A stretch of DNA of 58,797 nucleotides, filler included, from Basidiobolus ranarum (Eukaryota), in assembly GCA_040143965.1 (NCBI GenBank). It is 8 parts of 8 records of this genome, joined end to end, with 100 filler letters (N's around TTAATTAATTAA, not from the genome) between each part and the next. Parts side by side here need not be neighbours in the genome. Positions count along the whole stretch, not along the records: positions 44,191 to 51,444 come from JASJQH010008029.1; 7 more parts are not named here. The stretch is one strand, 5' to 3'. A program made the position numbers and the translations under genes. The number at the start of each line of letters is the position of its first letter. Position 1 is the stretch's first letter. A model generated the notes under the pieces. The model saw only the letters and a list, made by a program, of their open reading frames with translations, had not been told where the DNA came from and made no database searches. Shown here piece after piece: positions 24,044 to 51,444 of this stretch.

Positions 24044-24619
24044 ATGACTCAAGTATTCCGTATTGCTGGTATCTGTGGTGCTCTTCGCAAAGACTCTTGG
24101 AATATGAAGCTTCTTCTAGAGGCTAAAAGACTAGCTCCCGCAGGATCTGTAGTGGAAATAATTGATTGGTCCGAGCTTCCAATTTACAATGGTGAACTAG
24201 AAGAAGAACCACCAAAGTCAGTCATTGATTTCAAAAGCAAAATCGCCGCATGTGATGCAATTATCATTGCCACTCCTGAATATAATTTCTCGTACCCCGG
24301 TGCACTTAAGAATGCTATTGACTGGGCCAGTCGTCCACTTGGCACAACAAACTCTTTTTCTGGTAAAGCCATTGCTTTGATGAGTGCTGGACCAGGCGCA
24401 TATCCAGGAGCTAGCGGTGGTCACCGGGCTCAACTTCATCTTCAGCAAGTGCTTAGTATTCTTAACACACACCTTGTTAGCTTACCAATGATTTGTGTTA
24501 CGGGCTCTGCATCAGCTTTTGACGAGACAACTGGAAAGTTGGTAAGCGAGCATACTCAACAGAGCATAGCTCTTAAGCTAGAGAATCTTATCAACCTTTC
24601 GAAGAAAATTAAGGAATGA
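24044..24619 (+). CDS. NAD(P)H-dependent FMN reductase (ChrR/YieF/Lot6 flavodoxin-like family)
   Basis: GICGALRKDSWN, PEYNFSYPGALKNAIDWASRP and GGHRAQLHLQQV motifs. Intronless, ATG at 24044, TATAAAA at 23941. Confidence 0.92.
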   Translation: MTQVFRIAGICGALRKDSWNMKLLLEAKRLAPAGSVVEIIDWSELPIYNGELEEEPPKSVIDFKSKIAACDAIIIATPEYNFSYPGALKNAIDWASRPLGTTNSFSGKAIALMSAGPGAYPGASGGHRAQLHLQQVLSILNTHLVSLPMICVTGSASAFDETTGKLVSEHTQQSIALKLENLINLSKKIKE

Positions 24620-38318: not shown

Positions 38319-40894
38319 TTATGTTGACATAGATGCTAAACTACTGCTCGGATTATTTTCTTTTTTGACCATCACATCCACCTCTTTGCCAAAATCGAAC
38401 ACCTCAAACCACGTAGCACTCCTTCTCTGTACAGCAGCTACACATCGTCTTTCGTCGAATTGTACTTGCCAGACATGTTGCAATCCTACTAGCAAGTCCC
38501 GTACAAACTTCCCTGTTTTGATGTCCCACATCTTCAAGTTTGTTTCAGAGCCAGAGATGACCTTTTGATCATCGTGCTGAAAGCAAGTGATAGCACCGGT
38601 GTGTGTAGATAATACATTTCGACACGTACCAGTATCTGGATCCCAGACACGCAGTGTTGCATCGGCTGCAGCAGAAACCAGATGATTAGGTGTCAGACTA
38701 AGTAAACCTACTAGCGATGAATGGCCTACATAGGAATATATTTGATTAGCATTCGAACTAATGAGGTCAAAGCACACTATGGCTTACCTTCCAATGCGTA
38801 GATACATGTTCCATGTTCGAGACTCCAAATACGAACCGAGCAATCCATACTACCAGATATGCACCGGTTTCTATCCTTGTCAATAACCACACTGTATACC
38901 TTTTGCGTATGTCCCTCCAGCCTCCATTTACACTCTCCATTCATGACATTCCACACTCTAACTGTGCAATCGTAACTGCCACTCACTACGGTGTTTCCAT
39001 ATGCAGCGATGGCTCGGACGGAGTGTGCATGTCCCATCAAAGAACGCAAATAGAAAGGGTTCGGAGTGGTTTGTGCCTCACTAGACTCGTTACTTTCTGA
39101 AGGATATCTCGGATCATCGGAGGAAGGAAGTCTCCACACTCTTAAAGTAGAGTCGCGAGAACCAGTCACAATAATAGGATAGGGTGGCTCCATGATAGGT
39201 TCGCCCTCTTGGTCAGGGTTCACATTGGTAGGAATAAGGATTTGTAAGCATCGGACGGTGGACGAGTGTCCGCGAAAGGTGTGTGTGTTGATCCCTCGTT
39301 CAATATCCCAAATACGAACAGTACGATCAGTCGAGCCAGTCACCAATGTATTCCCATAGTATTGTAAGGCCCACACGCCACCATTATGGGCTTGCAGTTT
39401 CTTCCTTAAGCTACCCGTTTTCGTGTCATATATATGAATATCAAAGTCCTCAGTCCCGGAAACAATCTTGTCTGAATCAAATTGTAGACAGGTGACGACA
39501 CATTCACTATGTCCTTCAAATGAGATACTAGAGCATCGACCGCGCATCCAATTTCGGCGAATGATATGATGTCGTCGATACAAGTATTTATAGGTATGTT
39601 TGGCAACAACCTCCAAGCAATCACGGGGATCTGATGGGGCAGTGAGACCGGGGATAATCACTTCAAAATCATCTTCTGTATCACTTGCAACCAAGCCTCT
39701 AGATTCACCTGCTGCAAACTCATCTTCTCGTAATCTAGATTGGCCATCACTAATTCTTCTATTCTCGGATGCTATGGAAGGTGGATTCCTCAGAGGGTTC
39801 ATGCGCTTCTGCTTTTTTTCAAATGAATTCAAGACCATCATGTCTTCTTCGGTGAATTTGAATCCAGCAAGATTGAATAAACTTTTCCATATATTTACAT
39901 CAGAATCAACCAGCTTTCTCCAGCATTTACTTACTCTAGCTGAGCGACAGATACTTTGAATGTCCAAATATCTTACAATTTTTAGTCCAAGTTCATATGG
40001 CAATTTACCTAGAAAATCTATCTTTAAGTTGGGCAGTATGGTAGAAGCGATGAACTGAAGTGTTCCAGCATTGGATCTCTTGAGCATTTGAAAAAGCATA
40101 GCTTGTTGTATTTCAGCCGGCAAAGAATCAAATCGACTCAGTAGGCCAGGTAGATTTGGAAATGAGGTAGGTATCTTCGAAGAAGGTCCCACGAGTTCCT
40201 GATCCATCTCTTCTGTGTCCTTTCTATCCGTATCTTCTAGATCGAGTGGATTTTCTATCAATATTGGAGAAGAAGGAGAGCGGCAAGGTGAAGGCAAAGA
40301 AGCAGAATCTTCTCTAATTATCGGAATGCTTTCTGAAGTTCGTTCAAAATGAGCAAGAGATTGTGGAATAATTTGTGGGGAGATTTCGGGATTGGAACTT
40401 TGTGAAAATCGGGTTCGTTTGTATGGTGTTGGGGTAATATTTTCAGCTACTACTTCGGAATCGTCAGGAGAATCGGTGTTTCTTTTTAGTTTTGGAGGTG
40501 TTAAGGAGGTAAGAGTGGAAAGTACCTATATATGATAATACTATAAGATCAGTTTGTTAAAAAAGCACCAATTTTGAAAGATTACCTTGACGATATTCAA
40601 GTTGTGTGAAGAGGATATTTCATTATTATTTTCCAAACTACCAATCTTTAAAGCAGTTGGTGTGGGGAAATTTATGAGCGGATACTCTGTAGACGACCAC
40701 GGTAGCTTTGGAGAACCCGGAGGGTGCTTTAGCTTGCTGATATTAGTTTCCGTTGTAGTAGTAGTAGTAGTGTGGGTGGTAATGATAGGTGCAACTCTAT
40801 CTGAGAGTAAGAAGGGAGAGCGAGATATGGTTGAGGAATTGACGCTTGCTTCAGTTGGATTCTGTGATTCCGAAGGAGGATTTGAGTCATTCAT
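38319..40894 (-). CDS. CDC4: SCF F-box/WD40 substrate receptor, Cdc4/Fbw7 family
   Basis: Exons 40894-40586, 40525-38788 and 38725-38319. F-box (DFLGKLPYELGLKIVRYLD) and WD40 repeats with Cdc4-type segments VVTCLQFD, GGVWAL, GHSSTVRCL, IVTGSRDSTLRVW, GHSSLVGLL and GAITCFQHD. Confidence 0.9.
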
Positions 40895-41816
40895 GATCTA
40901 AGTTGTTTAGGTAGTAATTATTTAATAAGCAAGTGGCGTTGAAAAGAGTGAAGCGAAGGTTCTGTAATCACACAACAAAAGAAGGATTTTCTTAAATCTA
41001 TATGATGTATCTGATGAGCCCAAAAAAGTGACTTTTGGTGCAAATCATTAAATGAGTTAAATCAAAAAAGACTAGTAAATGGCGAAACATTGATATGATC
41101 ATGTGATTACTGTGTAGAAGTCAACATATCAAACCCTTAAAACAAATGATTTAATAACCATAACTACTCTCGCCACTCACCACAGTTATCACCGCTACTC
41201 CCACTACTACTCCAACTACAGCATCACATAATAGAGTCCTAAAGCACCGACAGATCTTTGATTAGTAAGTAGAAAATGTCTCACTCAACACAATGAGATC
41301 ACCTATGAGCATTCAGTTGAGTATTATATATCCAAGTTCACTGATGTGACTTAATATATGCTTGGCAAACAATCAGAAGTGCATACAGAATACCATAATA
41401 TAACACTACCGGAATTGTTGCTTTTTTCCGATTTACCCGAATCTTGATACTGAATTGAATTACATAATAAATCAATATATCAGTATGAGTATATATCGAA
41501 TGAATGGAATGTTCAGCGATCTTTGCTTTTCATTCGTCTTAGATTATATTGATTATTTGCTGTACTAGTACGAACGACTCGATTGATTTTCTATATGATT
41601 TGTTAATCCAAGCTCTTTACCTACTCACTCTCCCCTTATTACACGCATTCCAACACCAAAGACAACTCTATATCACCTTTAACTAACTAGCTAGCTTTTG
41701 TTTTTACTATACGCTTTTATTTCTGTCGCTTTTCCGTCGTAATTGTATAACTGTTTGTATAATAGTAACTCAGGGTTTTGCACTTTATCACACTCTTCCA
41801 ATTGAAGACATTCCAG

Positions 41817-43565
41817 ATGGCACACTTATTAAACACTGAAGCTGGTCCCGATTTGGACGAAGGCTATGATGAACAAAAGGTAGAGATTCCAGAATGGATG
41901 GATCTCTGGACCGATGAACAAAAGTCAGGTTGGCATTTATTTCACAATACTATATTTTCTGTTCAATATATTAACTTTTCGATGTCTTTTAAAGAGTTTG
42001 CCTACCAATTACTTTTATCAGTAAATCCACAATCTGTAGAAGGAGTCCTCTCTCGTCTAAATCCTTTATTGTACAAAGATTTCATCACACATTTACCTCA
42101 CGAGCTGGCTCTTCATATACTTAGCTATACAAATATCTCAACCTTAGGAAGAGTATCATCGGTATGTAAAAATTGGCAGCGAACGATAGACGACTCAGGC
42201 TTATGGAAAAAGATGTACTTCAATCAAGGTTGGGAGGTAAAAGAAACTGAGCTAAATAATATCGTAAGAGCCATTGAAGAAGACAGTATGAATGAATCCC
42301 AATATTCCGAATTGAGTGAGCAAAGCAATGAGTACGAAGAGGAAGATACAGAGCCCTTAGTTTCTCCATCTCAGATTGGTTTATCACCTGTCCACGTGAA
42401 TACCATTACTCGGCGTATTCCAGAGCTTTCTCTGAATGATGGATTTATACTGGTTCGTGCTCCTCAAGCACACCGTGAAAGGGTCTCGCACGACTCAAAT
42501 TCCAGCTCCTCGCGTCTTGGTTTAAACTCAAAAACAAGACGCCTGCACATCTCTCCTGCTTCTCCCAATCGAAAGACAAAAGGTCGAATACAAGGGGATC
42601 CTGTTTTTCTATACACGGAAGAAAACAAAGTCACAATCAACTGGAAATATCTGACCCAGCAACGAGCCAAGTTGAAGCATAATTGGGCTCATGTACACTA
42701 CCAGCTCAGACGATTGCCTGGTCATGCTGAAGGGATTTACTGTATCCAATTTGATGAAGCGAAGATAGTTTCGGGCTCCAGAGATCATACGATAAAGATT
42801 TGGGACATTCATAGTGGGTGCTGTATCTCTACTTTTCGTGGACATACGGCGTCTGTATTATGTTTGCAATATGACGATGAAATCATCGTGTCTGGCTCTA
42901 GCGATTCCAGTGTTATTGTTTGGGATGTCACATCAGGTGAAATTATTCGTGTTTTGACTGGTCACACCGAGCCGGTTCTAAACCTGAGCTTTGACAAGAA
43001 ACACATTGTCACTTGCTCCAAAGATCGATCTATTCGCGTTTGGGATCGTGCAACTGGTGCTCTATTACGTACCTTAACTGGACACAGAATAGCTGTGAAT
43101 GCTGTCCAGTTCAAAGATGGAATCATCGTTTCTGCTTCTGGCGACCGAACAATAATGATGTGGGATCTGGAGACTGGGATGTGTCTGAAGACACTTGTTG
43201 GCCACACACGAGGCATTGCGTGCGTACAATATGACGGAAAGGTGATTATATCCGGATCCAAGGATAGAACAATCAAAATATGGGATGCAATTACGGGTGA
43301 GTGCATTAGAACCTTAACTGGTCACACAGAGCTGGTCAGAACCCTACAATTTAACGACAAGGTGATTCTTTCCGGCTCTTACGATCGAACCATTAAAATA
43401 TGGGACCGCCAAACCGGAGAGCTGTTGGGTGATCTCAAGGATGGCCATGCCTGCCGAGTTTTTAAAGCCCAGTTTGATTACACTAAAGTCGTGTCGTGTT
43501 CTCAGGACCATCACGTACTGGTGTGGGATTTCGCCCATGATGTGGATGTCACTTATTTAGCTTAG
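41817..43565 (+). CDS. SCF F-box/WD40 protein, beta-TrCP/FWD-1-like
   Basis: Dimerisation-domain-like N-terminus (WTDEQKSEFAYQLL after removing intron 41929-41994), F-box DFITHLPHELALHILSY, seven WD40 repeats (IYCIQFDEAKIVSGSRDHTIKIWD, GHTRGIACVQY, GHTELVRTLQF, VVSCSQDHHVLVWDF). Confidence 0.88.
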   Translation: MAHLLNTEAGPDLDEGYDEQKVEIPEWMDLWTDEQKSGWHLFHNTIFSVQYINFSMSFKEFAYQLLLSVNPQSVEGVLSRLNPLLYKDFITHLPHELALHILSYTNISTLGRVSSVCKNWQRTIDDSGLWKKMYFNQGWEVKETELNNIVRAIEEDSMNESQYSELSEQSNEYEEEDTEPLVSPSQIGLSPVHVNTITRRIPELSLNDGFILVRAPQAHRERVSHDSNSSSSRLGLNSKTRRLHISPASPNRKTKGRIQGDPVFLYTEENKVTINWKYLTQQRAKLKHNWAHVHYQLRRLPGHAEGIYCIQFDEAKIVSGSRDHTIKIWDIHSGCCISTFRGHTASVLCLQYDDEIIVSGSSDSSVIVWDVTSGEIIRVLTGHTEPVLNLSFDKKHIVTCSKDRSIRVWDRATGALLRTLTGHRIAVNAVQFKDGIIVSASGDRTIMMWDLETGMCLKTLVGHTRGIACVQYDGKVIISGSKDRTIKIWDAITGECIRTLTGHTELVRTLQFNDKVILSGSYDRTIKIWDRQTGELLGDLKDGHACRVFKAQFDYTKVVSCSQDHHVLVWDFAHDVDVTYLA

Positions 43566-47162: not shown

Positions 47163-47812
47163 GTTTGACTAATTTCGTTGTCGCATTAACATGCTTTTTA
47201 TAGGTCTGGGTATGGATTCATCATCCAGCCTATGGTACGTGTCTGCAACGCATACCCCTGGTTATGTTTGCTTCCAATCAGGAGTGTCTTTGGAAACCCT
47301 GTCGGGAATGACCCAAATATAAAATACCTCCCCCTCACACGCGGCGGGGGGAAGTGCAATAGAATCGAGCCCCGCCAGGAAAGCGAAACGCATGGTTTCC
47401 ATGGCCTTGGCTAGGGGGCACGGTCCTTTTGGATTAGCCGGGGAGGGGGCTTTCCCATGCCTATTGGGTACTCTTCCCGACTTATTACGGGGGGAGGGGC
47501 CCCAAACAACCACCCCCTGATTCCTGCTGGGAGCCCGCCCCCAAGGTGGAGAGGGGAAGGGCCAAAGGGATCGGAAAGGGGCCACAGAATACTTCGCATA
47601 TTTCCTGGGGCAAATCTGTTTCGTATGGGACAATTGCTAGTCTTTTGCCTGCCAATCTTTACGAGAGTGTATTAAGTATGGTTATATCTCACAGCAGTGA
47701 ATGCCTTTATTTTTTATCTGCATGCGAACCATGTGGTGGCTTAAGAGTTTAAATTCTATAGCAACTAGCCATTACTTTTGTATCTTTTCTCAATACTCTT
47801 AAGATGATCGAG

Positions 47813-49846
47813 TCATTTCTGTGGAAATGTCTGATTAATGATGGATGTAAGCGGCCCAGACAAGTCAAGTATGAACAGCAAAATGGCCGCTTCACGTAAG
47901 GCTTCAAGTAGAATTATTTCACTATTTTTTTGCCGCCATTGCGTTGCTGCTTTGAAGGCCATATCAAGAATTTGTTGTTGGCAGTGCTGTGCGGCTATAT
48001 GATTTCTTTTGTGTATAGCTTCTGCACATGCCAACATCAGGTTAGCCACCAAAGCACATCCTCTCTCTGACATTTTGGATGCTATACGAGCATAGATATC
48101 TTGCCTTTCCAGACTCTTTGAGTTGAGTTCACCCTTTGTAAGTAGGCTTATACATCTATCTCTAGCTGTCTCAGTCATCCCCATAGTAGCTTCTCGGTCT
48201 ATTAGTGCTACAGCCCCCAAGACCCTGTGTCGTGCTGATGATATGGACCAGATAATGACGCCACCAAGCATTGCTCGGCCCGCAGAGCCTACCTTCAGGA
48301 GCTTAAGTACATGTTCACCAGTACTATCCTGGACACATGGGATTGATACTGGGCTTCCCTGCATGCAGACACTGTTCATTATCTCACCTTCAATCACGTC
48401 GGATACGAAATCCAACAAGTCGTGTACATAGGCCAAACTGCCACTCAAATCAGCCAACTCATCAACTGTGGCGCATACTTCTTTGTCCAATGCCACCACC
48501 CAGTAAGGCACCGTCCCAAAATCCCAAGCGCGTATCCTTCGTGCTTCTTCCGATCTGAGACATCCGGATTCTCTAATGATAGCCGCAACTCCTCTGGTCT
48601 TTGTAAAGGCCGGACCGGCGCCCATAATCATAGCAGTGCTACACATTGTCTGCCAGCATAATGCTCCTCGTGGTCCTAGGGATAGCAGTTGTCTGCCACC
48701 TATACTCACTCCTTGAATGCATTCATTAGCAACTTGCGGTGTGTAATAGACTGAATTCATTCCGTAATCAAGCAAGACTTCTATTGCTGCAGCACGGCAT
48801 AGGGCTTCCAATATTAAGCTGTTCGATGCAGTCGCAGTCATCAAAATTGCCGTGAGCGTGGTGCATTGGACTAGATTAACGTTTGCCTTCTCATTTGTTA
48901 TGGCAGCTACTTCGGCCATGTCGTTATCATTGGTGGCAACTGCTTGCTGTTTTCCTTTTGGGCCCTCTCCCAGTCGTTGCATTATACCCTCACAGAGTTT
49001 GGTCACGTCGTCTTCTTTTTTACCAGTAAGAGGAGATAAAACACTGACAACACTGCGTAACTGCCCTGCACCATAAATAACATCTCTATCACTTCCAGGT
49101 TGTCCAATTATGCAATCAAACTGACTTTCCAGTAGCCTTGACACCTCCAAGTCGATATCATAATGCTTTTGCTGTGTTGCTTCCAGAAGATGCGTAAGGC
49201 TACGGTACCGTTGAATTAGTTCCTCAATCTCGGGTTTAGCAGTGCTTAGTCTTTGCAATGTCTCTTGTAGTAGCTTACCACGGTTTCCAGTTATAGAACT
49301 TTCGTGCTCTGCATTTTTTACAGCCTCCAATATTGCGTGCTCCACTATTGGCCTTATTGTATCACTAGGCAAGAGTTCTTTCTCCACACACGAAGCAGAG
49401 TCGAAATCGATGTTTGTGCGCATTCTCAGGTCAAATTCACCCGCAAAACTATCAACAGTCTGCTCGGATGCCAATATCACAGGATAAGGCAAGCAAACTT
49501 TGTTTTCATTGCTTTCTGTCTTCATAGCCTCTGGTTGATTATACAAAGGAGTATTGGCTATTAACCATAGCCTTTGCTTGCTTTTATTACTAAATACAAT
49601 CTTTAGTGCTTCCACCGACACGCCCTTGATGTTCTTCTTGAGATACTTTTTGGAATTATTGCTCTCTTGGCAGCCTTGAGGATCGGCCTTATCCGCAGAT
49701 ACAAATAGCTCGTAGTTACTCCACCAGAAGTCAATAATCTCAACTGGATTCTCTCCGTTATAGTCCACCCTATTTCGCTTTGTCATGCAGTTGTTGGTTA
49801 GGAGTGGATTCTGCAAGCGGTCGATTACGTTAGCTGATCTCTTCAT
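47813..49846 (-). CDS. 677-aa intronless protein; putative non-canonical class I terpene cyclase with N-terminal extension
   Basis: The long ORF itself is secure. The function is inferred from ordered motifs E356-VLL-D360, R425-ESG, H475-DLLDFVSD-VIEGEIMN491 (NSE/DTE-like) and W533-SISSA-RH540 (WxxxxxRY-like). Confidence 0.6.
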   Translation of the reverse strand: MKRSANVIDRLQNPLLTNNCMTKRNRVDYNGENPVEIIDFWWSNYELFVSADKADPQGCQESNNSKKYLKKNIKGVSVEALKIVFSNKSKQRLWLIANTPLYNQPEAMKTESNENKVCLPYPVILASEQTVDSFAGEFDLRMRTNIDFDSASCVEKELLPSDTIRPIVEHAILEAVKNAEHESSITGNRGKLLQETLQRLSTAKPEIEELIQRYRSLTHLLEATQQKHYDIDLEVSRLLESQFDCIIGQPGSDRDVIYGAGQLRSVVSVLSPLTGKKEDDVTKLCEGIMQRLGEGPKGKQQAVATNDNDMAEVAAITNEKANVNLVQCTTLTAILMTATASNSLILEALCRAAAIEVLLDYGMNSVYYTPQVANECIQGVSIGGRQLLSLGPRGALCWQTMCSTAMIMGAGPAFTKTRGVAAIIRESGCLRSEEARRIRAWDFGTVPYWVVALDKEVCATVDELADLSGSLAYVHDLLDFVSDVIEGEIMNSVCMQGSPVSIPCVQDSTGEHVLKLLKVGSAGRAMLGGVIIWSISSARHRVLGAVALIDREATMGMTETARDRCISLLTKGELNSKSLERQDIYARIASKMSERGCALVANLMLACAEAIHKRNHIAAQHCQQQILDMAFKAATQWRQKNSEIILLEALREAAILLFILDLSGPLTSIINQTFPQK

Positions 49847-51444
49847 CTGGAGGTGTGTGCAGAGGTATAAAGAAAAATTTACGTTTAACTGACTTGCAAA
49901 TGTATATAGGCTTTTATATCAAAACTCAAGAACTTTGTGTACATAATGCACTAAATTCTTGTACATTATGACACAGCTGGTGCTATTGTCTGCAATTTAT
50001 GGGGCTAAATGTTTCTACGTAACAGGTACATGCTTGGTTCAGCTCCCTATCTTGCGTATGTATTGTTATAAAGACTGGATTTTGGATTTCCAATCAAAGG
50101 GGGAAATACTATGTGTTATGCACTCCTGAGCTTTCAGGATCTCCAATAGCACGATGTGGTACATTTCCCTTTTTGTGGTTTATTCTTTCCCAAACGCTAA
50201 CATTTTCTTACCTGCTGCGTAATGGCATAAGTGCATTGCTTGCTGTCACAAACTCAACCATCTGACAATAGTGATACCTTCCTATGCTCAATGGTATTGC
50301 AGCAATCCAAAATAAAAATAAAAAACCCTGACTGGTCTGAATCGCCTAACTCACCGTCAATCAAACCACTTACTGACTTGAATAATTTAACTTACCACAG
50401 AGATAATTGTGTGGTCCGATTACCACTGTGGTTTACTCTGCCACTTAAATCATGCTGCTCTTTTGGTAGGAGTGCAGAATCATAGCGATTTGATTGGTTA
50501 AAATCGCTTCAGTATTACGATATTTCCCGTAAGGTTAGGGGGGATGAAATCTTATGGGGGTGAAAAGCACCAAGTGATGTGGACTTTATCAAGCTTATGT
50601 ACTAATCCAAACAACGGTTGGGGGGAGACAGTCACCAATAGTTGAAATCTTTATTTCAAACAAAACAAAGAAGCCATAACTACTTTTGTAGTTTCTTCAT
50701 TAAACGGTTAAGTTTGGAAGTATTGAATCAAATGTTGCAAATGAGAAAAGTTAAGTTTGTAGAGTCTAAGACACTATTGAGTGGCCTGGGAGGGAATAAC
50801 AAAGGTAAAAATGGTTTCTCAACAATAGAAATTAGTGGAATAAGACTAGGATTAGCATAAAGCATACAGGGAGTGTGTTTCTGAAAATATTGCTGCCAAT
50901 GATCCACCAAGTATTCCTTGCAGGCAAGGGAGAACTTTTTGGCTTGTTCTATAAACAAAGCAAATTTTCTGACTTCAAGATCTCCTGGCAGTACTCTCTA
51001 CAATACTAGATCATATCCATACTTAACCTGATGACCAATATAATCAAGCTCAGAGGACATAAATATAGTGTTAAGGGGCAAAGGTGGTATGCAGAATGGA
51101 AGGTACTCAGTACAAACCAGATGGACAATAGGACAAAAACCTGGAATAATGGGAATTAAGAAAGGTGTCTTGGAGGCAAGGTATTGCTTCCAAAGGTCTA
51201 GCCGGAAGTCTATAGAACAATTTTAGGCTGTTTTGTTTCATGCAGCTGTAAAGCTAACTCAGAAACCAGAGGATTATCTTGTATCAATTTCCAGCTTGAT
51301 AGTGCATTTGAAGATGGTGTGGCTAGCCACTTCTTAATCAGTGGATTTCTTCAGTCACTTAGTTGGATTAGAAATCTTGCCCCAAGTAAAACTACTTTAA
51401 TACAATATGGGAAGAATCCAAAAGTTCCATTCAGAGCATGATCA

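Follow-up and report, generated by a model that had tools for sequence, protein, structure and literature searches.

A candidate non-canonical class I terpene cyclase beside a cytochrome P450 gene in Basidiobolus ranarum

The DNA analysed here (the window, 58,797 nucleotides) consists of eight fungal contigs of Basidiobolus ranarum with N runs between them. One of these, a contig of 7,254 bases (G000:C8029), carries the uninterrupted open reading frame P0001, a 2,034-base frame without an internal stop that is present once in its own genome (Table 1). Its product has an orphan N-terminal region of ∼290 aa, a predicted cyclase core (residues ∼300–600) and a helical C-terminus. No RNA run was listed as holding the frame. 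One DNA run, which may derive from the window's own sample, covers the frame with two letter differences: a silent change at P447 and I645M. Near the C-terminus, an L-D-L-S-G stretch (47849–47863) resembles L-[DN]-L-S-[GN] of the fungal TriDTC enzymes and V-E-L-S-G of the bacterial proteins described below, a likeness noted by eye that may be chance.

A multi-exon cytochrome P450 gene begins (47162) 651 bases downstream of the P0001 stop. Its exon chain was placed from open segments rather than from RNA. Both the ExxR and heme-Cys motifs are intact; a GT..AG intron interrupts the codon for the heme Cys, and the joined exons read F-A-D-G-S-R-I-C-I-G. This P450 is a likely tailoring partner of P0001. 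No prenyltransferase gene was found on the contig, and PF00348 matches lie on five other contigs. Between the P0001 gene and the P450 start is a G+C-rich segment with long G and C runs (47337–47600). Read depth there is 137 versus 13, which suggests a small repeated element in the P450 upstream region. Upstream of P0001, positions 50483–51444 form a very high-copy repeat with a summed depth of 2,000–72,000.

Table 1. Features of P0001, its P450 neighbour and its paralogues (window positions, except where a separate locus is named)
Feature	Position	Strand	Basis or remark
Uninterrupted ORF P0001, 677 aa	47813..49846	(-)	Translation
E356-V-L-L-D360-Y-G, likely DDxxD equivalent	48761..48781	(-)	E356 at the conserved Asp of relatives
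R425, proposed earlier as effector	48572..48574	(-)	Not conserved
R439-A-W-D442-F-G444, likely pyrophosphate-sensor/effector motif	48515..48532	(-)	Invariant in 6/6 fungal sequences
H475-D-x-x-D479-x-x-x-D483-x-x-x-G-E-x-x-N491, NSE/DTE-site variant with aspartate triad	48374..48424	(-)	Spacing as in TriDTC and VigB
W533-x5-R539-H540, WxxxxxRY variant	48227..48250	(-)	W and R invariant in 6/6 fungal sequences
Multi-exon cytochrome P450 gene	45042..47162	(-), same strand as P0001	PF00067, E 2.7e-33 for one exon
Five orphan paralogues, intron-free, 500-800 aa	C1560 (L081 1452-3872 -), C9841 (L082), C1715 (L063), C6902 (L062), C2198 (L060)		

The initial annotation of this DNA read a class I cyclase motif set from E356, D360, R425, H475–D483 followed by GExxN491, and W533xxxxxRH540. 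Each of these residues stands where it was placed in the minus-strand translation, with the E356 codon at 48779–48781 and R425 50 residues ahead of H475. The motifs also follow one another with plausible spacing, as had been claimed: the ordered set of four arose in 0 of 200,000 shuffles of P0001, a significance that is overstated because the pattern was post hoc. Taken singly, ExxxD occurred in 183,232 of 200,000 shuffles and is meaningless alone, W-x5-R-[HY] in 3,082 and HDxxDxxxD in 215.

P0001 shares with canonical class I enzymes (PF06330 TRI5, PF19086; trichodiene synthase) the order of the four motifs, a G-x3-W-x5-R stretch and G-E-x-x-N after the NSE site. It differs in being twice their size, in having E356-x3-D360 rather than DDxxD, and in lacking the NSE Ser and Glu (HDxxDxxxD). 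Further departures from the canon are His at the NSE Asn, His at the RY Tyr and Ser at the NSE Lys. In the canonical (N/D)DxxSxxxE, the ligands occupy positions 1, 5 and 9, which in P0001 correspond to H475, D479 and D483. At the first motif, E356, D360 or both are likely metal ligands, judging by the sequence.

The Basidiobolus genome encodes five paralogues of P0001. A motif-blind search of the genome with the P0001 core (E ≤10) matched the long ORFs C1715 and C6902 at E 0.35. C1560, C9841 and C2198 were first chosen by motif patterns, C2198 being reached also through one of C1715 and C6902. From 10, 7 and 7 own-genome pattern matches, only long ORFs with the remaining motifs were kept; the others were either short frames or an acidic protein with no relation to P0001, and were dropped. 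Neither the Arg motif nor W-x5-R was part of the search patterns. All five paralogues have the same motif order, namely an Asp motif (LDT or VDY), Arg, HDxxDxxxD and W-x5-R-Y, with RY where P0001 has RH. The first acid precedes the Arg by 81–83 residues (in P0001, R439 lies 83 from E356 and 79 from D360), the Arg precedes the His by 36–40, and the His precedes the second Arg by 64–74. P0001 is 13–23% identical to every relative.

When P0001 and the paralogues were aligned, H475, D476, D479, D483, N491, W533 and R539 of the initial annotation proved invariant in all six fungal sequences, and so did R439. The effector and second Arg (R439 and R539, both 6/6) are in canonical order. R425, to which the effector role had been given, is conserved neither in this alignment nor in the 12-sequence alignment described below. 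Because R439 is invariant in the six fungal sequences and matches bacterial R-[WC]-W-[DE] and TriDTC R406-S-W408, it is most likely the effector Arg. The earlier proposal that P0001 is a class I cyclase, divergent and with changed metal ligands, is supported, while its choice of effector is replaced.

A profile of the paralogues only gave P0001 12.2 bits versus 11.6 for the best of 5,000 shuffles, a marginal result. The six-sequence fungal profile retrieved trichodiene synthase first from the PDB, weakly (E 0.22–0.76) and on G-x3-W-x5-RY. Four of the five paralogues were scanned against Pfam and gave no match; three of the five contain 30–38 Cys. The genome's canonical cyclase genes are three ordinary PF19086 members. 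A search of the six paralogue stretches with a single P450 exon found no P450. A broken copy of C1715, with stops and frameshifts, lies at C116:4190–4769 (L057–L059), its pieces 63–89% identical.

When 401 genomes from a single actinomycete family were searched with the same fungal profile, two gave a match (per-genome E 1.3e-5 and 2.3e-5). The matching protein, 637 aa long, contains V-D-Y-P-G, R-W-W-D-G, N-D-x-x-D-x-x-x-D and W-x5-R-Y. Its gene directly follows genes for a polyprenyl synthase and the mevalonate pathway, and nothing in the query had specified such surroundings. With the 637-aa protein as the next query, matches appeared at seven places in 6 of 401 genomes and in three Streptomyces and Kitasatospora plasmid records. 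Since a single protein is encoded by both one of the genome loci and one of the plasmid records, nine distinct loci remain. A P450 or polyprenyl synthase neighbour was seen at six of the nine, or ∼4 of 7 lineages once two close-kin pairs are allowed for. At the remaining three, one P450 and one prenyltransferase query found neither gene. Members of this Streptomycetaceae protein family (for example WP_331729983.1, WP_138968307.1 and WP_326682905.1, ‘hypothetical protein’) resemble P0001 in length (∼580–660 aa), in motif order and in their frequent P450 or polyprenyl synthase neighbours. Their motifs run D-[YF]-x-[GD] / R-[WC]-W-[DE] / [ND]-[DE]-x-x-[DG]-x-x-x-D-x4-E-x2-N / [WF]-Y-x3-4-R-[YW], and R-[WC]-W-[DE] is found in 8/8 full-length relatives. 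They differ from P0001 in Arg-to-NSE spacing (49–50 versus 36), and identity to it is 15–19%.

In an alignment of 12 sequences (P0001, its five paralogues and bacterial relatives), D483, N491 and R539 are invariant (12/12), and E356 falls in the column where the 11 other sequences carry their conserved first-motif Asp. L101, a partial match, stayed outside the alignments, and L103 and L104 were used in a local bacterial profile only. A profile of the 11 relatives without P0001 gave P0001 17.1 bits versus 8.7 for the best of 10,000 shuffles; this leave-one-out score is inflated because motif patterns had brought in three of the members, C1560, C9841 and C2198. By hhalign, the 11-relative profile met P0001 with a probability of 74% (E 2.8e-5; 0 of 60 shuffles as high). 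The bacterial profile alone misses P0001, at 0.5 bits and rank 291 of ∼10,000 targets, and with an hhalign probability of 0.9% that 6 of 60 shuffles equalled. The link between P0001 and the bacteria thus runs through the paralogues and is weak and indirect. Searched against the PDB, the 12-sequence profile placed an unrelated coiled coil, SIR4, first (E 0.04), with SydA at E 1.2. The bacterial family could fall in class IE or IF, whose enzymes are 68 and 75 kDa in the available text of PMC11234867. This family or the Basidiobolus proteins may already be listed in the homologue table of PMC12703729.

The surroundings of some bacterial relatives are of separate interest. An 821-aa ‘cytochrome P450’ upstream of a relative (L102:4516–6981; L105 9978–7762) has a C-terminal part that matches polyprenyl synthase (E 2e-12) and is likely a P450–prenyltransferase fusion ahead of the cyclase-like gene. 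At L093:92–9234, what looks like a complete mevalonate cassette (kinases, a type 2 isomerase-like gene, HMG-CoA reductase and HMG-CoA synthase), a polyprenyl synthase and the cyclase-like gene all run in one direction, and the stretch is a candidate undescribed terpenoid cluster. The plasmid relative at L103:5652–14410 has a polyprenyl synthase flank, with squalene/phytoene synthase and squalene-cyclase-type genes beyond a transposase.

In direct searches, P0001 retrieved no other protein, TriDTCs included. It had no significant match in Pfam, NCBIfam or the PDB (the only Pfam match was a viral Zn domain at a non-significant E of 0.27) and none to the PF19086, PF06330 and PF03936 HMMs. Word-index searches (8,000 candidates; 2,176 candidates at E ≤10) and phmmer over 1.84 billion representatives returned the query itself only. 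Among sampled genomes, matches numbered 0 of 401 for P0001, 0 of 401 for alignment A2 and 0 of 301 for alignment A5; one of four genomes searched singly gave a weak stretch (E 0.01). Against plasmids, tblastn with P0001 gave four weak matches. Two of these were inspected and judged chance, one being a GntR regulator and the other a stretch without annotation; queries with two of the paralogues yielded 2 weak matches and none, respectively. Motif pattern scans produced 13 viral, 22 GTDB and one metagenome match. None was relative-like once translated, and the strict H/W/G/N pattern thus does not fit the bacterial members.

A single-sequence AlphaFold model of P0001 had a pLDDT of 38 and no Foldseek match at E ≤0.001; its helices 343–360 and 472–488 cover both acidic motifs, a weak observation at that pLDDT. 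Against 11 canonical cyclase domains, 2 of 60 shuffles scored at least as high as P0001. This result, the uninformative model and the lack of a significant direct match to any characterised enzyme would suit an unrelated helical protein that carries short cyclase-like motifs by chance. Such a coincidence is nonetheless highly improbable, given the rarity of the ordered motif set among shuffles, a leave-one-out profile score double that of the top shuffle among 10,000, the P450 neighbour, and learned features that point toward terpene synthases. In the ESM Atlas, whole P0001 fell first with unnamed Ascomycota and Actinomycetota clusters (0.93–0.94) and then with TRI5/Terpene_syn_C_2 clusters (0.87–0.89), and residues 335–560 fell with a TRI5 cluster (0.90, 173 shared features). 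A class I cyclase fold, active or otherwise, is very likely.

Among characterised enzymes, AsR6 and BcABA3 had been offered as comparators, and neither holds up. The ABA3 family, as described in the available text of PMC11695735, has a single Glu as metal ligand and Tyr, Arg or His in place of acids at the NSE site, where P0001 keeps three Asp; the ABA3 chain gave no match at E ≤10 in the P0001 search of the PDB. The solved chains of AsR6 (class IC) were matched at E ≤10 neither by P0001 nor by the profiles. Class ID was also set aside: of its motifs as given in the available text of PMC11234867 (PeuTPS; D(N/D), ND, RxxKD), RxxKD does not occur in the P0001 translation. Two large non-canonical diterpene cyclases described recently, TriDTC and VigB, fit better.

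The TriDTCs (Tri4155, Tcie612) are Trichoderma enzymes that cyclise GGPP to the diterpenes harzianol I / wickerol A. The available text of PMC12370890 places them in three Hypocreales genera only, at 47–97% identity, and proposes a de novo origin in Trichoderma. Like P0001, they are large (∼650 aa) and without a Pfam domain. In a comparison made by eye and from residue numbering, TriDTC H444/D445/D448/D452/G456/N460 has the spacing of P0001 H475/D476/D479/D483/G487/N491, with 16 residues from His to Asn in both. R406/W408/Y410 similarly resembles R439/W441/F443 (R-[AS]-W with an aromatic at +4; Arg to His 38 versus 36), and a V-L-L-[HD]-Y stretch lies upstream in both. Alanine at D445, D448 or D452 abolished the TriDTC product, and N460A lowered it to ∼0.4 mg/L from 3.0–4.5 (PMC12370890). 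The RY pair is absent from Tri4155 as reported there, whereas P0001 has W-x5-R-H and its paralogues W-x5-R-Y.

VigB, the 589-aa vinigrol diterpene cyclase of Virgaria nigra, also acts on GGPP, and the available text of PMC12703729 describes NDxxDYxxD, an R-G effector and an RY pair as its strictly conserved beacons, along with a rewired connectivity of its helices. Like P0001, it is a large cyclase with a central catalytic region and is clustered with a P450. In both proteins, 79 residues separate D-Y-G from the effector Arg (D260/R339 in VigB, D360/R439 in P0001), and D260-Y-G-T and D360-Y-G-M agree in three of four letters according to the published residue positions. VigB N369-D-x-x-D-Y-x-x-D corresponds to H-D-x-x-D-F-x-x-D, both having Asp for the NSE Ser and Glu, with N369 replaced by His. 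P0001 has Ala at G340 and His at Y436, and thus R-A and R-H for R-G and RY; in VigB, G340A changes the product, and natural homologues carry Ala at that position (PMC12703729). Spacing from the Arg to the NSE site is 30 in VigB versus 36 in P0001, and from the NSE site to the Arg of the RY pair 66 versus 64. The VigB cluster holds a GGPP synthase and a P450, whereas the short contig of P0001 holds a P450 and no GGPP synthase. P0001 would be a new variant among non-canonical class I cyclases, outside TriDTC and VigB by some motif letters and, for TriDTC, by overall similarity.

Our favoured reading is that P0001 is probably an active, non-canonical, Mg-dependent class I terpene cyclase paired with the adjacent P450. 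Because both of the closest characterised enzymes use GGPP, this substrate is somewhat favoured over FPP by analogy. In the proposed reaction, Mg2+ ions would be held by E356, perhaps together with D360, and by the H475/D476/D479/D483 site. R439 and R539 would grip the diphosphate, which would then leave as the prenyl diphosphate is ionised. W441/F443 and W533 may line the pocket in which the allylic cation cyclises and may steer that cation, and the P450 would oxidise the product.

P0001 could instead be a decaying or non-catalytic relative of such cyclases, right in ancestry and fold but without activity. No P0001 orthologue was found in the databases searched, which included other Basidiobolus proteins, whereas paralogue C2198 has one (P0003). 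The RY-to-RH change is unique to P0001, the same genome holds the broken copy of another paralogue at C116, and 6 of 13 assayed TriDTC homologues were inactive (PMC12370890). Decay is nevertheless unlikely: the long frame is free of stops, all predicted catalytic positions are retained at only ∼15–20% overall identity, and the heme motif of the adjoining P450 is intact. Nor is the Tyr strictly needed, as VigB Y436A kept trace activity (PMC12703729).

The ionisation motifs are silent on the cascade that follows, and the same fold might ionise its substrate without closing a ring, releasing a linear terpene or alcohol or transferring the prenyl group. A UbiA-type prenyltransferase cluster came first in the ESM Atlas structure search (TM 0.34/0.44), although all rows there were below the Atlas's bar. 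P0001 has neither the second DDxxD of chain-elongating prenyltransferases nor a PF00348 match, its closest characterised enzymes are cyclases, and separate polyprenyl synthases adjoin the bacterial relatives. On these grounds, an acyclic outcome is rather improbable, and cyclisation remains the preferred role.

A broader proposal is held tentatively, at somewhat less than even confidence: that TriDTC, VigB, the six Basidiobolus paralogues and the Streptomycetaceae family belong to a single ancient superfamily of large cyclases that Pfam does not recognise and whose second metal site is all aspartate. P0001 would be its most altered member, having His where the NSE Asn and the RY Tyr would stand and Ala where a substitution switches the VigB product; together with its P450 it might make a new diterpene skeleton. 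If true, this would overturn the proposed de novo origin of TriDTCs in Trichoderma and would provide a search motif for many hidden cyclases. The shared motif skeleton offers a test of one origin for TriDTC and VigB, each described as isolated in the available texts, and for the bacterial genes.

Standard mining misses non-canonical terpene cyclases, and the two closest to P0001 build unusual drug-like scaffolds (vinigrol, harzianes). By antiSMASH, Basidiobolus has 4–10 cyclases per genome (PMC7466969), and such counts would miss the P0001 gene and its five paralogues. Among the titles listed in a literature search, none concerned non-canonical cyclases of Basidiobolus. Being compact, the putative cyclase and P450 pair could be tested directly in yeast or Aspergillus oryzae.

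Elsewhere in the window, positions 24044–24619 hold an intron-free 191-aa ORF, presumably a bacterial-type NADPH-dependent FMN reductase by its appearance. Finally, a single contig carries two divergently arranged F-box/WD40 genes (38777–43565), which we take to be Cdc4-like and beta-TrCP-like.
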